DNA of 64,000 nucleotides, from the sequence record OR983334.1. The stretch is one strand, 5' to 3'. The translations under genes and the position numbers were made by a program. Source of the stretch: Escherichia phage 1-6bf. The notes under the pieces are model-generated. The model was not told the DNA's origin. It saw only the letters and a program-made list of their open reading frames with translations, and made no database searches. Shown in pieces: positions 1 to 45,763 of the stretch (position 1 is its first letter; each line of letters opens with the position of its first letter).

Positions 1-23
1 AATAACTCTCCTTGTTATAGCTT

Positions 24-47
24 AGCCACCTCCGGGTGGCTTTTTTC
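24..47 (+). terminator. rho-independent terminator (GC hairpin + T6)
   Basis: AGCCACC-TCCG-GGTGGCT stem-loop followed by TTTTTT, read directly from sequence. Confidence 0.5.
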
Positions 48-59
48 GTTGGAGACAAC

Positions 60-410
60 ATGCAAAACACATTAAGTGATAACTTAGGGTTTATCGTTTT
101 CTCAGCTCTTGTGTTCTTTGGTGGTATGAAGTTTAACGAGTACCAAACAGACAGTAGTAATCTGGATAAAGAGAAACATCAACAAGAGTTAGAGATTGAA
201 AGAAATAGAGCAGCTGATGAAGTTGCTCAGAGAGTTCTTACCGGTTTATCTAACTGGAAGAAGAACACGGAAACCGTTTATAAAGAGATGCATTATGAGA
301 AAACTAAACCAGTTTTTTATAATGTCTGCGCTAGTGATGAGTATGTCAGCTTGTTCAACGAGCGACAACAGCAGGCAATCAATGCCCTTACCAACAAACC
401 TAAAAGCTGA
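60..410 (+). CDS. i-spanin-like (Rz-like) membrane protein
   Basis: GGAG RBS 7 nt before ATG at 60; N-terminal TMD (LGFIVFSALVFFGG) then charged coiled-coil-like region; 3' end overlapped out of frame by a lipoprotein ORF. Confidence 0.45.
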   Translation: MQNTLSDNLGFIVFSALVFFGGMKFNEYQTDSSNLDKEKHQQELEIERNRAADEVAQRVLTGLSNWKKNTETVYKEMHYEKTKPVFYNVCASDEYVSLFNERQQQAINALTNKPKS

Positions 411-554
411 ATGTAGGGTTGACCTACCTCTTTTAGAGAGTACTCAAGGAAAAGCACTAGCCACTACGTTGGAGTGGTATCAGGACCAGTACACAGAATG
501 TGCTGCCAATCACAATGGATTGTTAGAAGCTCTGAAAGAACGTGGAATAAAATA

Positions 555-555
<1 letters not shown>
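295..555 (+). CDS. o-spanin-like outer-membrane lipoprotein (Rz1-like)
   Basis: MRKLNQFFIMSALVMSMSAC signal peptide with lipobox MSAC; ORF overlaps the 3' end of the Rz-like gene in another frame, the classic overlapped spanin architecture. Confidence 0.45.
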
Positions 556-2047
<1,492 letters not shown>

Positions 2048-2051
<4 letters not shown>

Positions 2052-2941
2052 ATGAAGAGGTAAAAGCTTTAAAGAAAGCTCTTGCAATTAAAATCAAACA
2101 TTTAAATTTCGTCAGAGATGAGTTGGAGGAGCTATCCAACTTATCAGGGTATGAATTACAGAATGAACTTGTAGAGTTTCAAATCAATGTTGATGGCGGT
2201 AGATACGTAGAAACAACTAGAGCGATTTTACCTAAAGTTACTGGTAACAAAACTTCTCCAGTAGATTACTCACATGACCACACGGAGCAATTAGAAATGG
2301 AATCTCAAGGCAATCCAGCACTGACCAATATGGTGAGAGATTCCCACTATAAGCCTTTAGTAGTAATTCTTAATGGGCCTCCGGGTTGTGGTAAAGATAC
2401 GATAGCCAATGCTTGGGTCAATGCCCATTCATACCACCACGGATATTCAACCAAATCCTTCAAGGAGCCAATGTACAGAGTAGCTGCTGCTGCACTAGGA
2501 ATACCTCTAGAAAATTTTCTAGCACGCTATGAAGATCGTGAATGGAAAGAAAAACCTAGACCAGAATGGGGAGGGAAGTCTGTAAGAGATTTGATGATTT
2601 CTACAAGTGAAGACTTCTTAAAACCTATGTTTGGCAACAATCATATGGGGAATCTTGCTGTAAAAAGTATCAAACAAGAAGGGCTAGGTCAGGATGATAT
2701 TGTCGTGTTTACTGACGGAGGTTTTGATGCAGAGGTACGAGAACTAGAAAAGAATTTCCATGTCCAAGTTGTCCAAGTTCTTAGAGATGGTTGCTCTTTT
2801 GATGGAGACTCTCGTTCATATATTGAAGGCGAACAGAGAAAAACATATCTACTGTTTAATGACTCAACCATCGAATCAGCAGTCTCAGATCTAGATTGGA
2901 TTATTGCTCAAGCTCAGGATGATATTTATGGAAGAAGTTAA
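2048..2941 (+). CDS. P-loop kinase, dNMP-kinase-like, with about 110-aa N-terminal extension
   Basis: Walker A GPPGCGKDT resembles the GxxxSGKDT loop of phage dNMP kinases; GGAGAG RBS before ATG 2048. Confidence 0.5.
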
Positions 2942-3746
2942 GCTCCCTGAAGTTGCTATAGTGGATGCTGACGTTCTTCGATATGAAGTGGGTGCTCTTA
3001 CTCAGGAGCATCCCTTTCTTGACACAGGACGTGTTCCAGTTGATTACAATTTCATGATTGAACGACTTCAGTACAAGATAGATACAATCATTGCTCGCTC
3101 AGGTTGCAGTAAGGTTGTGTTCTACTTCAGCGAAGGTGGTAACTTCCGTTTTGATGTTGCTAAGCAGCAAGACTACAAGGCAAACAGACCTCCCGGAGAA
3201 AGACCTTTTCACTGGCAAAACGTTGGTGATTACATTAAAGCCAAGTACGAATACATTGAGGTCTTTGGGAGAGAAGCTGATGATGCACTAGCTGAAAGAC
3301 AACGTAGGGATAAGAATACTATCATCTGTACTAGAGACAAGGATTTGTTGATAACTCCCGGATGGCATTATCGCTGGGCTTGTGGAGAAAGACAGAAAGA
3401 AGTTCCTCCTCACTATGTATCCGATTTAGTCTCATGGCAAAACTTCTTCTATCAAATGTTGATTGGAGATGGTACGGATAATATCCCCGGATGTGGGGAA
3501 CGTAAAGAAGTTATGTGGGGCGGTAAGCTTCAGCTTCGACGTCAAGGAATAGGGAAGAAGGCAGCAGCTAAATTGTTGGCTGGTGTTACAGATAAGTGGA
3601 CCATGTATCATATAGTACGAATGGAATACTATAAGAAGTTCGATACTGAAGATGAAGAGAAGATGCTTGAGAATGCTCGGCTGCTCTTTGTTGGTCAGGC
3701 TCCGGAAGACCTGTTCGACTGGACATGGTTAGATAAATCTTGGTAA
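2928..3746 (+). CDS. 5'-3' exonuclease / flap endonuclease (FEN, RNase H-like)
   Basis: motifs IVDADVLRYE, EADDALA, TRDKDLL, IGDGTDNIPGCG, GIGKKAAAKLL match the FEN/T5 D15/T7 gp6 family. Confidence 0.8.
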   Translation: MEEVKLPEVAIVDADVLRYEVGALTQEHPFLDTGRVPVDYNFMIERLQYKIDTIIARSGCSKVVFYFSEGGNFRFDVAKQQDYKANRPPGERPFHWQNVGDYIKAKYEYIEVFGREADDALAERQRRDKNTIICTRDKDLLITPGWHYRWACGERQKEVPPHYVSDLVSWQNFFYQMLIGDGTDNIPGCGERKEVMWGGKLQLRRQGIGKKAAAKLLAGVTDKWTMYHIVRMEYYKKFDTEDEEKMLENARLLFVGQAPEDLFDWTWLDKSW

Positions 3747-3759
3747 TAAGGATATTATA

Positions 3760-3939
3760 ATGGGTAAATTTGATTATCGTTCATATGATGAAAACTCATC
3801 CAATCGTGAATCTCGTAAAGATCAAAAGATTAAACATCAACTGTTTGATCAGCGAACTGGTCGTATTCCTCGTGAGGGAAAAGTGAGTCATCGTGTAAAC
3901 AAACGAGTTTGGGAAGAAGCTGATTATGGCGAAGTCTGA
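3760..3939 (+). CDS. hypothetical small protein
   Basis: 59-codon ORF with AAGGA RBS; overlaps start of downstream HNH gene. Confidence 0.3.
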   Translation: MGKFDYRSYDENSSNRESRKDQKIKHQLFDQRTGRIPREGKVSHRVNKRVWEEADYGEV

Positions 3940-4327
3940 GAAGACTCGCTGTAGTGGAATGTGGACTGAAGCTCGTTACAACTCTTTCATCAAGTCAGGG
4001 ATTCGTTCTCTGACTAGAAAGTGGAAGCCCATGTTCGATGCACTAGCAGACGCCAAGACAGAGCAGAAGATTAATCCGAAGACAGGAAGACTGGCAATGC
4101 ACTTTAAATGTGCCATGTGTGGTTCTGACCACCCTGTAAAGGATATGGCTATTGACCACATAGAGCCTATAGTTCCCTTAGATCATGAAGCAACTTGGGA
4201 TGAAATCATCTCTCGTGCTCTGTGTGAGAAAGAAGGTTTTCAGGTTCTATGTAAAGACCCTTGTCATAAGATTAAAACAAAAGAAGAGAATGATGCAAGA
4301 AAACAATTCAAAAAAGGAAATGAGTGA
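3926..4327 (+). CDS. HNH endonuclease
   Basis: CAMCGS ... DHIEPI ... CKDPCHKIK zinc-binding HNH motif. Confidence 0.6.
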   Translation: MAKSEKTRCSGMWTEARYNSFIKSGIRSLTRKWKPMFDALADAKTEQKINPKTGRLAMHFKCAMCGSDHPVKDMAIDHIEPIVPLDHEATWDEIISRALCEKEGFQVLCKDPCHKIKTKEENDARKQFKKGNE

Positions 4328-4547
4328 TGATCAAAAATCTACGCAACAAGTGCTTCGCTTTCGCTATCGCAATTGGAGAGGCGAGGTTGCTGACCGGTCC
4401 GTTATTCCACTCCGAACCTCCGTTGCTAGCTCCCGTTTTCATAACGGTGGCAAACCTTGTTGGATTATGACAGCGATAGATGTAGAGAAAGATGAGATTC
4501 GAGAGTTCAAACTCTCTGACATTATTCAGTATTACGATTTAATCTAG
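4320..4547 (+). CDS. hypothetical protein
   Basis: ORF with AAAGGAAA RBS; no recognisable motif. Confidence 0.35.
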   Translation: MSDDQKSTQQVLRFRYRNWRGEVADRSVIPLRTSVASSRFHNGGKPCWIMTAIDVEKDEIREFKLSDIIQYYDLI

Positions 4548-4555
4548 GAACTGAC

Positions 4556-4720
4556 ATGATCACACAAGCAGATAAAAATAAACTCTTCGACTTAATCCAC
4601 GACCTATTAGAAGCTCAGAGTTTTATCAACAACGCCGACACTTGGGAGATGGAAGCAGCTGGAAAAGCTTTTGATGAAAGTGAAGAGAAGCTTATTAATT
4701 TTATAAACACAATCTAGGGG
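4556..4720 (+). CDS. hypothetical small protein
   Basis: 54-codon ORF at end of + strand cluster. Confidence 0.3.
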
Positions 4721-4872
4721 GTTATATGAATGAAGAAGTTGTTATTCTTGGTAGTAAATCAGATTGGTTCTACGGAGGCATCTCAGGATGCTTTGAAGAT
4801 GAACATCCAGACTTCTGAAGAGAATTGGGATGTATGACGAATTTGATGGTTTTTAAAACTTAGAAACAAATA

Positions 4873-4906
4873 AAGCCCTCTTGGATTTCTCCTTGAGGGC
4901 TTTTCT
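4873..4906. terminator. bidirectional terminator between convergent gene blocks
   Basis: AAGCCCTC-loop-GAGGGCTT hairpin flanked by T/A runs, placed exactly where + and - strand clusters converge. Confidence 0.5.
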
Positions 4907-19798: not shown

Positions 19799-20290
19799 TT
19801 AATATTTACCTTCGGTATAAAGATCAGCTTCCGCAACCCTTCTGTTATGAAGACCCTGACTTCTCTGCTTCTCTCCCTTAACCGTAATTTTATCCCAACG
19901 TAGAAATTCTGAGTATATATCACCCTTAACCTCTCCATTGATAACTTTCCTTAGCTTAGATGTGCTCAGTGCCCCACTACCAACATTGAAGTTGAAAGAG
20001 GTGAGTGCATCGAACTCATGAACTAGCAAAGGAACCTTTATGTTCTTCTGAGTAGCACGAACAGAGTCTTGTGTGTCTCTATCTAGCAGAGCTAGACAAT
20101 CCTCTATAGAATATGTTAATCCTTGCCTAACCGGATAACCATTCATATCGCGCGTAGCCCCTACACAAATCGTCCAGATGCCTGCGGAATCTTTATAAGC
20201 TTTGGTTCTCATACCCTCATGCTTCATGATGAATTCCATTCCAGCTGGGCTTAAGTTTAGTTGTACAGGTGGCAATGCGACGTTATCCAT
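19799..20290 (-). CDS. endolysin, T4-type lysozyme (GH24)
   Basis: KHEGMRTKAYKDSAGIWTICVG matches the lysozyme catalytic E...D...T motif. Confidence 0.9.
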   Translation of the reverse strand: MDNVALPPVQLNLSPAGMEFIMKHEGMRTKAYKDSAGIWTICVGATRDMNGYPVRQGLTYSIEDCLALLDRDTQDSVRATQKNIKVPLLVHEFDALTSFNFNVGSGALSTSKLRKVINGEVKGDIYSEFLRWDKITVKGEKQRSQGLHNRRVAEADLYTEGKY

Positions 20291-20319: not shown

Positions 20320-20538
20320 TTAAGGTAGTATCTTTCTCAGAGCGTTAGATTCAGCATCAGGGCAAATAACAACCAAATTGTTTTGAATGGTTCGCTGCTT
20401 GCATTGTGAACTGAGTTTCTCTACTGGAGCAGGAGTAGTGACTAAAGGGTGGACTGCATTAACAGGAACTGCTGTTGATACAACAACTCCAGCACCTAAG
20501 CAAACTAAACCGTATGCAGCTTGTTTCATCATTTTCAT
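20320..20538 (-). CDS. small membrane/secreted protein upstream of endolysin (holin candidate)
   Basis: 72 aa, one N-terminal hydrophobic segment (AAYGLVCLGAGVVVSTAV), AGGAG RBS, immediately 5' of lysozyme. Confidence 0.35.
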   Translation of the reverse strand: MKMMKQAAYGLVCLGAGVVVSTAVPVNAVHPLVTTPAPVEKLSSQCKQRTIQNNLVVICPDAESNALRKILP

Positions 20539-35220: not shown

Positions 35221-35718
35221 ATGGCTAAAGCAATGCAGGTAGTTAATCTGGCAAGTTATGCACTAGTTGCAGCGATTGGTGTTAGTGCACTGGTCACATC
35301 TCTTTCTGATAAGGCTATCGCTAGTCCTACTCCTACTCCTGCAACTGATGCGGCTAGTGTCTTCTCTAGTTCCATCAATAAGGGTTGGATGATTTGTAAC
35401 GGTGCTGATAGTGATGGCACTTCCATCGTGTTAAAGATGAAATTTAGCAACGTTACTAATGATGGTGTTCTCTTTCAATCTAAAACGCTAGATAATCAGC
35501 CTAACAGTGATTTGGTGCTTAAGCGTACCGATAACGATATGGATATGGTGACATTTGGCACTGTACAACGTTATGAAGACGTTAAAGCCGTTACTAATCT
35601 TGTGAGTTATGGTCCGGTTAATGAGTCGATGATCGCCACAACTGTTTACAATAACGCTGACAACGCTGTTTATACTGTTCACGTTAATTTAGCCAACTGC
35701 ATTAAGGCTAGTAAGTGA
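35221..35718 (+). CDS. early secreted/membrane-anchored protein
   Basis: AAGGAG RBS; N-terminal hydrophobic segment VVNLASYALVAAIGVSALV. Confidence 0.55.
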   Translation: MAKAMQVVNLASYALVAAIGVSALVTSLSDKAIASPTPTPATDAASVFSSSINKGWMICNGADSDGTSIVLKMKFSNVTNDGVLFQSKTLDNQPNSDLVLKRTDNDMDMVTFGTVQRYEDVKAVTNLVSYGPVNESMIATTVYNNADNAVYTVHVNLANCIKASK

Positions 35719-35754
35719 ATAAATTAATTTGCCAATCTTTTGGGAGTATAAATA

Positions 35755-36006
35755 ATGGCTATTAAAGAAGTTGAATTATCTAACGACTTTTCTTGTTTTG
35801 TTGGCGATACTGCTATCATGTTTAATACGCTTGATGGTCAGCTTATCGTGCCTATTATCACTTTTTGCAAAATGGATTTTCAGTCAGCTAAAAAATGGTT
35901 GAAATTTGCTGGCCTTGAAATTACCCGTGCTGATTTTCGTGACATCTATATCAAAGGTGATTTGTCACTGGCTAACCTGTTAAGTGAAAGATTGATACAT
36001 GACTAA
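35755..36006 (+). CDS. early hypothetical protein
   Basis: 83-aa ORF with GGGAG RBS. Confidence 0.5.
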   Translation: MAIKEVELSNDFSCFVGDTAIMFNTLDGQLIVPIITFCKMDFQSAKKWLKFAGLEITRADFRDIYIKGDLSLANLLSERLIHD

Positions 36007-45379: not shown

Positions 45380-45458
45380 GAGGATGTATCTTCCCCGCCT
45401 TCTAAGCGGTCGTTAAAGAAGTAATTGGAGTATGCAGGTTCGAACCCTGTCATCCTCG
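45380..45458 (+). tRNA. tRNA-like element (possible tRNA-Arg UCU; cloverleaf not fully resolved by hand)
   Basis: perfect 7-bp acceptor stem (GAGGATG/CATCCTC), T-arm GCAGG-TTCGAAC-CCTGT, hairpin with loop CTTCTAA; D-arm non-canonical in my fold; no encoded CCA. Confidence 0.35.
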
Positions 45459-45481: not shown

Positions 45482-45763
45482 ATGTCATGGGGTGGTGTAA
45501 TATCCTTAATCTGTATCTTCCTTGTCTGCATAGCCCTTACAGGCTGCGTACAGAGCCGTCCTGATGGATGGTGTGCAGTAGCAGTGGAAGGTGTTTGTGT
45601 TTCTCGCTGGCACAAAGGTGAGAAGGTTCCTTCTGGTGAAATTGATATGCGTTACAGTGGTATCTCATGCCTGAACGGTGCAGCAGTAGATGAGGAAACT
45701 AAAACCTTGTCAGATGCACAGTGGTGTGGTGGTTCTGTAACAACAACCGGTAAGGAGTGGTAA
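45482..45763 (+). CDS. lipoprotein (superinfection-exclusion candidate)
   Basis: GGAGG RBS; signal peptide MSWGGVISLICIFLVCIALTGC with lipobox LTGC; Cys-rich mature part. Confidence 0.55.
   Translation: MSWGGVISLICIFLVCIALTGCVQSRPDGWCAVAVEGVCVSRWHKGEKVPSGEIDMRYSGISCLNGAAVDEETKTLSDAQWCGGSVTTTGKEW

Follow-up and report, generated by a model that had tools for sequence, protein, structure and literature searches.

An overlapped gene pair of a phiEco32-like Kuravirus probably encodes its two-component spanin, away from the endolysin gene

Two overlapping open reading frames (ORFs) at one end of a phage DNA segment raise the question of whether they encode a spanin, given that the endolysin gene is remote and on the other strand. 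The segment, referred to here as the window, is a 64,000-nt stretch from Escherichia phage 1-6bf (OR983334.1). Its first 6 kb match 232 phage records, full-length nucleotide identity to Escherichia phages 1-6af, FH3, Bas90, SU10, and phiEco32 is 97-99%, and the window can be assigned to a phiEco32-like Kuravirus genome of the Gordonclarkvirinae. It is oriented as the reversed phiEco32 map, and approximately 13 kb of the genome falls outside the 64 kb. With a probability that we put at roughly 0.9, positions 60-555 encode the two-component spanin of this virus in the overlapped arrangement; for brevity, the two products are called i-spanin and o-spanin below. The assignment is of little discovery value: the pair was catalogued in 2018 and appears in several GenBank records, and the spanin literature already covers both its overlapped architecture and its distance from the holin and endolysin. 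Our literature search found no experimental test of the phiEco32-like spanin family, be it complementation, a spherical-cell/Mg2+ phenotype, lipidation, or interaction. The features discussed are collected in Table 1.

Table 1. Features of the window relevant to the candidate spanin pair and to lysis (nt positions of the window).
Feature	Position	Strand	Evidence or remark
Equivalents of phiEco32 genes 39 to 27	1-4900	+	
Terminator-like GC-rich hairpin AGCCACC-TCCG-GGTGGCT with T6 run	24-47	+	Terminator scan
Shine-Dalgarno GGAG of i-spanin	51-54	+	5 nt before ATG 60
Probable i-spanin gene, 116 aa, homolog of phiEco32 gp39	60-410	+	PHROG 1152, RefSeq annotation, SpaninDB
Weak Shine-Dalgarno AAAGAG of o-spanin	281-286	+	8 nt before ATG 295
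Probable o-spanin gene, 86-aa precursor, N-terminally extended phiEco32 gp38	295-555	+	+1 frame
Dual-coding overlap, 116 nt	295-410	+	i-spanin residues 79-116, o-spanin residues 1-38
Macro-domain gene ("Appr-1-p processing"/"phosphatase")	555-995	+	Pfam Macro 1.3e-10
Virion genes 26 to 1	4911-34700	-	
Endolysin, 163 aa, T4-lysozyme/Phage_lysozyme fold family	19799-20290	-	PF00959 6.8e-32, PHROG 7
Holin candidate, 72 aa, homolog of phiEco32 gp16	20320-20538	-	PHROG 11161 "holin" 1.1e-49
Early genes	rest of window, past 34700	+	

The first gene has exactly the coordinates given in the earlier note, which had ascribed an N-terminal transmembrane segment to its product. The sole hydrophobic stretch of the protein, LGFIVFSALVFFGGM, occupies residues 9-23 (KD15 2.23), and the approximately 90 residues that follow are polar and charged and are taken as the periplasmic domain. 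The predicted topology is that of a type II inner-membrane protein with one N-terminal transmembrane segment, the single segment that characterizes the i-spanins of the overlapped two-component class (Summer et al. 2007; Kongari et al. 2018). The protein matches PHROG 1152, "Rz-like spanin" (E 1.8e-37), and the same label is attached to its homolog in RefSeq; a Pfam scan returned only sub-threshold matches to DUF profiles. The proposal that the periplasmic domain is helical is weakly borne out: a single-sequence AlphaFold model is all-helical at low confidence (mean pLDDT 57.7), and for the phiEco32 i-spanin the table of Kongari et al. gives helix in 54 of 88 periplasmic residues (61%), with coiled coil not predicted (PMC6139136). 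The Shine-Dalgarno context is the one given for NJ01 and KBNP1711 in SpaninDB (PMC6139136). An alternative start, GTG 36, was rejected; it lies inside the hairpin stem, lacks a ribosome-binding site (RBS), and is used in no annotated record examined.

The second gene begins inside the first, in another frame, and continues for 145 nt beyond the i-spanin stop at 410, which is what defines the overlapped class. The out-of-frame start at 295, the lipobox MSAC, and the length of the extension had all been read exactly in the earlier note. The precursor begins with MRKLNQFFIMSALVMSMSAC and continues STSD..., so that residues 1-19 form a signal peptide with a charged MRK n-region, a hydrophobic core, and the lipobox MSAC ending in Cys20. 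A lipoprotein signal, named beforehand as one of two points on which the idea could fail, is present by a PROSITE PS51257-type pattern, and o-spanin homologs are LipoP-positive according to SpaninDB (PMC6139136). The +2 residue is Ser rather than Asp, and there is no inner-membrane retention signal. The mature protein of 67 aa contains three cysteines (Cys20, Cys40, and Cys69) and three prolines, is not proline-rich, and is partly helical by prediction. Along its entire length it aligns with PHROG 2425, which has no name (E 1.3e-27), and there is a weak match to PHROG 456, "Rz-like spanin" (E 1.6e-4); a Pfam scan gave no match. The GAG/AGAG within its weak Shine-Dalgarno sequence is marked as the o-spanin signal of NJ01 and KBNP1711 in SpaninDB (PMC6139136).

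Searches by tblastn with both proteins reach annotated i- and o-spanins. With the 86-aa o-spanin as query, 290 phage records were matched, all at a query coverage of at least 80%, and the matches therefore take in the signal peptide. We aligned 10 o-spanins, from Kuravirus, Suseptimavirus, Morganella phage Henu15, Sashavirus Solent, Erwinia Kolesnikvirus, Felixounavirus, and Suspvirus. The lipid-attachment residue Cys20 and Cys69 are invariant in 10/10 of these sequences, down to about 30% identity, and every one of them has an n-region rich in K/R, a hydrophobic core, and, ahead of the cysteine, a small residue; Cys40 is conserved in part of the family only. In the i-spanin, Cys90 is the sole cysteine and is invariant among the homologs, where it closes the conserved motif EK-x-KPVFxNxC. 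Homologs across these genera, down to 22-35% identity, keep o-spanin Cys20 and Cys69 as well as i-spanin Cys90 without exception, and at the sequence level both proteins offer periplasmic cysteines as candidate disulfide positions, as spanins do. Neither protein matches the Pfam Rz or Rz1 profile at E ≤ 0.1, so that "Rz-like" is a functional label, expressing analogy and not homology; the earlier description of the pair as "Rz/Rz1-like" holds in the former sense and fails in the latter.

SpaninDB (Kongari et al. 2018, BMC Bioinformatics 19:326, PMC6139136) lists the same pair for phiEco32 as "ovl" on strand -1 with an overlap of 116 nt, the i-spanin at 35417-35768 (116 aa) and the o-spanin at 35272-35533 (86 aa), in agreement with the overlapped architecture that had been proposed for the window. 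These are the same genes: their lengths of 351 and 261 nt, the sizes of both proteins, and the overlap are all equal between the window and phiEco32 gp39/extended gp38, the RBS contexts and the lipobox position match, and the two sequences agree at approximately 98% of nucleotides across the first 560 nt of the window. Pairs of this type differ by a few substitutions, the lipobox MSAC of the window corresponding to TMSA-C in NJ01 and SMSS-C in KBNP1711. SpaninDB assigns the i-spanin to the family "JH2," together with Felix O1-like phages, and the o-spanin to the family "NJ01/ECBP2/KBNP1711/PhiEco32" (PMC6139136). Overlapping i- and o-spanins with a transmembrane segment and a lipobox were also described in a 2026 paper on Kuravirus ZCEC16 (PMC13417854).

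The spanins of Felix O1-like phages of the Ounavirinae (Felix01, Mushroom, JH2, BPS15Q2, SUSP1, and Erwinia Kolesnikvirus) are overlapped too, lie away from the endolysin gene in an early/middle block, and, as in the window, are followed by a macro-domain "phosphatase" gene. Their i-spanins fall into the same 40%-identity SpaninDB family and have in common with the window the invariant cysteine of EK-x-KPVFxNxC, and their o-spanins possess Cys20 and Cys69 but lack Cys40 and the PLPTNLK segment. Identity to the window proteins is 22-35%, the o-spanins form a separate SpaninDB family, and the Felix O1-like genes adjoin pseT and rIIB, which are not beside the spanins of the window. The likeness to lambda Rz/Rz1 is one of proposed mechanism and topology: an inner-membrane-anchored protein and an outer-membrane lipoprotein, encoded in two frames and carrying periplasmic cysteines. 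However, Rz1 is short, proline-rich, and fully embedded in Rz, whereas the mature o-spanin of the window has a predicted C-terminal helix and its gene runs past that of its partner; the lambda genes belong to the SRRzRz1 cassette, whereas those of the window are away from the holin and endolysin genes, and there is no Pfam-level homology. T4 PseT.3/PseT.2 is a two-component spanin located, like that of the window, far from holin t and endolysin e (PMC6139136, Fig. 8 legend), which makes a split set of lysis genes a known arrangement; the T4 genes are of the "separated" type, unlike the overlapped genes of the window, and no sequence similarity was detected between them.

A place in the lysis cassette, which is typical of spanins and not defining, is lacking here. 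The endolysin gene, identified as such by its Phage_lysozyme match, is indeed on the opposite strand, and the distance of about 20 kb claimed for it corresponds to a measured gap of 19.2 kb. Homologous pairs occur in both settings: in Sashavirus Solent and Morganella phage Henu15, they are the last genes of holin-endolysin-spanin cassettes, and in Felix O1-like and Erwinia phages, they occupy early/middle regions far from the endolysin. Given the T4 precedent and the remote homologs in the Ounavirinae, we do not regard the remote location as one that would disqualify the pair.

The lysis genes had also been said to be split between two transcription units, and this is upheld by homology to phiEco32 and SU10: genes 25-68 of SU10, the spanins included, are middle genes, and genes 4-24, holin and lysozyme included, are late (PMC4281155), an assignment that rests on the summary of phiEco32 work in the SU10 paper and is carried over here by homology. 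Middle and late genes alike require the phage sigma factor gp36, whose recognition sequence is tAATGTATA (PMC4281155). In phiEco32, MN03, Bas90, and SU10, a TAATGTATAC middle promoter precedes gene 40, approximately 870 nt ahead of the i-spanin ATG and at a position just outside the window; an exact search of the window for the gp36 promoter core AATGTATA gave four matches, which is chance level, with none upstream of the spanin genes. The conserved hairpin between gene 40 and the i-spanin gene (-17.3 kcal/mol, z -2.8) stops 3 nt short of the RBS and 12 nt short of ATG 60. It leaves no room for a promoter, and transcription of the spanin genes would therefore have to come from the gene-40 middle promoter by read-through, which the hairpin may attenuate. 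In seven relatives, one position varies within the hairpin and T-run, against 9 of the 59 positions in 1-59; the hairpin is not among the four terminators given for SU10 (PMC4281155).

The position of the pair among middle genes feeds the strongest of the alternative explanations, namely that an inner-membrane protein and a lipoprotein serve a nonlytic envelope role in the middle phase of infection, such as superinfection exclusion or receptor masking, and are not a spanin. Lipoproteins of the T5 Llp or Cor type are examples of such functions. The neighboring genes of the middle block act in nucleotide metabolism and transcription, and the endolysin gene, 19 kb distant and on the opposite strand, belongs to a different temporal class, all of which would suit a nonlytic role. 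We nevertheless consider it very unlikely. Homologous pairs terminate the holin-endolysin cassettes of Solent and Henu15; a transmembrane protein and a lipoprotein encoded by overlapping genes, with periplasmic cysteines in both, constitute the spanin signature, and in T4, too, the spanin genes are distant from t and e (PMC6139136). Moreover, a six-frame lipobox scan of the 64 kb showed no other clean lipoprotein ORF (approximately 13 kb of the genome being outside), so that the phage would otherwise be without a spanin in this stretch.

The mechanism that a spanin assignment would imply can be outlined from the biology of lambda Rz/Rz1 and T4 PseT.3/PseT.2 as summarized in PMC6139136. The i-spanin would be anchored in the inner membrane, and the lipoprotein would travel to the outer membrane and settle in its inner leaflet; o-spanin and i-spanin would bind each other through their C-terminal regions, giving a complex that spans the periplasm through the peptidoglycan mesh. 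Intermolecular disulfides at the conserved cysteines (C90 of the i-spanin and C69 of the o-spanin, with or without C40) might stabilize homodimers. The peptidoglycan would cage the complex until soluble endolysin, released by the holin, degrades the wall, whereupon the freed complexes would oligomerize and collapse, fusing the inner and outer membranes and removing the last barrier to virion release. Placed in the middle-gene block, downstream of the gp36-dependent promoter and the terminator-like hairpin, the spanins would build up before the holin and endolysin, which are late, and stand ready until these appear, as happens in T4. The o-spanin TAA stop and the ATG of the macro-domain gene share one base (TAATG), and the pair would be translationally coupled to that gene.

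How endolysin would be released in this scheme is less clear-cut. The endolysin has no hydrophobic N-terminus by hydropathy (maximum KD15 0.82) and no SAR or signal segment; without a hydrophobic N-terminus, it should need a hole-forming holin. The endolysin of ZCEC16 was termed "SAR" by its authors (PMC13417854), and contrary to that claim, hydropathy does not support the label for the endolysin of the window. As to the holin candidate, the 72-aa ORF is on the minus strand at the coordinates given in the earlier note and matches a "holin" PHROG, but its identity is uncertain, the label resting on the PHROG and BLAST annotation names only. Its one hydrophobic segment is N-terminal (residues 8-26) and runs into VNA/V; two cysteines are C-terminal. 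The segment could be a signal anchor or a cleavable (signal-peptidase I) signal peptide, both of which fit equally, and the product, instead of being a classical holin, may be secreted as a peptide or held in the membrane by a signal anchor; for its ZCEC16 homolog, only a signal peptide was reported (PMC13417854). If it is secreted, something else would trigger endolysin release, and among the membrane components of lysis only the distant spanin pair would be firmly assigned. One may ask whether Kuravirus lysis departs altogether from the textbook scheme of holin, endolysin, and spanin, a notion suggested by middle-block spanins behind a hairpin, an endolysin without an export signal, and a holin candidate with a cleavable-looking Sec signal peptide; we think this unlikely. 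The uncertainty over the holin touches the wider lysis model and not the spanin call.

The practical worth of the finding lies in annotation. In the RefSeq records of phiEco32, SU10, MN03, and IMEP8 and in many GenBank records, Bas90 and IME267 among them, the o-spanin gene is annotated from an internal start, ATG 382, as a 57-aa ORF without the signal peptide. Most of these entries label the short ORF "hypothetical protein"; IMEP8 labels it "o-spanin," and the KM01 record calls it "Appr-1-p processing enzyme family protein." The annotations would be right if the second gene encoded a small soluble protein (MPLPTNLK...) and only the first gene product were membrane-borne. Such a reading, adopted even in IMEP8, seems to us barely credible: a Shine-Dalgarno sequence is lacking at ATG 382 but present (AAAGAG) ahead of ATG 295; the 29 codons upstream of ATG 382 encode the signal peptide and lipobox, and these are kept in homologs at 30% identity; and the PHROG 2425 profile spans residues 6-84 of the long form. 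The SpaninDB curators, too, shifted the o-spanin start upstream in KBNP1711, ECBP2, and NJ01, thereby recovering the lipoprotein signal, and give the 86-aa form for phiEco32 as well (PMC6139136). The ATG 382 start is a systematic mis-annotation that strips the signal peptide and lipobox from the o-spanin, and 295 is the correct start.

Particularly telling in this respect are KM01 (L005, PV018827.1, 889-1425) and SU7 (L006, NC_070980.1, about 703-1218), which carry an HNH homing-endonuclease cassette inside the spanin overlap, at the equivalent of window positions 340-347. KM01 is 100% identical to the window over positions 1-347 and then enters a 537-nt cassette, after which homology resumes at window position 340. 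The cassette encodes a recoded C-terminal tail of the i-spanin and the endonuclease, and a new signal peptide, ...KKKLLSCTGILLAFSLSAC, is read out of frame from the 3' end of the endonuclease gene and joined to the conserved mature o-spanin, while the old signal-peptide ORF survives as a stub without a lipobox, MRKLNQFFIMSALVMSMSLYLTRDRKKLRGF followed by a stop codon. The endonuclease of SU7 is 65% identical and occupies the same site, yet SU7 has another signal peptide still, MLTKKKQKSCLVIFLASSLMAC. Both replacement leaders, which stand in for the codons upstream of ATG 382, are unrelated to the old one and again end in a lipobox (LSAC in KM01 and LMAC in SU7). That two unrelated leaders both put a lipobox before the same cysteine is strong evidence, at the level of sequence, that export and lipidation of the o-spanin are what selection maintains, and the retention of the lipobox rules out the short 57-aa reading. 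The cassettes illustrate how spanin gene architecture changes: a homing-endonuclease cassette can separate two overlapped spanin genes and at the same time provide a new lipoprotein signal. An extra HNH endonuclease gene is present in SU10 (L004, 2588-3001), between the gene-40 homolog and the hairpin and spanin genes, and is missing from the window, phiEco32, MN03, and Bas90. Judging from SU10, KM01, and SU7, the spanin neighborhood appears to be a recurrent insertion site of homing endonucleases.

The overlap, which holds both Cys90 of the i-spanin and the lipobox of the o-spanin, shows the constraint of dual coding. In an alignment of the window with six kuravirus and suseptimavirus relatives, 13.8% of sites vary in the overlap, compared with 30.2% in the part coding for the i-spanin only and 33.8% in the part coding for the o-spanin only, and third codon positions account for 40/71 and 28/49 of the variable sites in these two flanks, respectively. 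Since variability in the overlap is half that of the single-coded flanks and the flanks are biased toward third positions, both frames are concluded to be coding and under purifying selection. All six frames of the 64 kb were scanned for ORFs of 45 aa or more with a signal peptide and lipobox. Three were found, against 0.4 per 64 kb in first-order Markov random sequences of the same composition; the ORF at 295-555 alone is clean, with an ATG start, a charged n-region, and a credible context at the 3' end of a gene for a transmembrane protein, and with three matches against 0.4 and one of them clean, the spanin pair exceeds what chance would give. Although out-of-frame ORFs of small size are frequent and the window has two other, unconvincing lipobox-like ORFs, the idea that 295-555 is open by chance and only happens to contain a lipobox-like string has a probability close to nil and is effectively refuted by the o-spanin alignment, which extends over several phage genera and subfamilies, by the halved variability of the overlap, and by the KM01 and SU7 cassettes.

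Several further features of the window deserve mention. A macro-domain gene also follows the homologous spanin pairs of Erwinia Kolesnikvirus and Felix O1-like phages (L011, 2778-3560; L012, 3761-4546; L013, 4352-5146), which hints at an old gene neighborhood common to Ounavirinae and Gordonclarkvirinae. Near the 3' end of this gene in the window, a near-consensus sigma-70 promoter at 967-996 on the plus strand (TGGACA, an 18-nt spacer, and TATAAT; 11/12 matches) precedes the phage sigma-factor gene at 1015-1662; a dedicated promoter with 18-nt spacing has been described for the sigma-factor gene of SU10 and fits this element. In the early region, the plus-strand ORF 45482-45763 has the N-terminus MSWGGVISLICIFLVCIALTGC, continuing VQS, which resembles a second lipoprotein signal, with a lipobox LTGC and without a charged n-region. 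It matches PHROG 4281, of unknown function (7.8e-36), and could encode an early envelope or exclusion lipoprotein. Just upstream, a tRNA-like element at 45380-45458 on the plus strand scores 29.7 bits against an Rfam gathering threshold of 29 and receives no ARAGORN call. Its acceptor stem and T arm are intact and its anticodon loop reads UCU (Arg), while the D arm is down to 4 nt and the variable region measures 20 nt; a tRNA-Arg(TCT) has been reported in Kuravirus papers.
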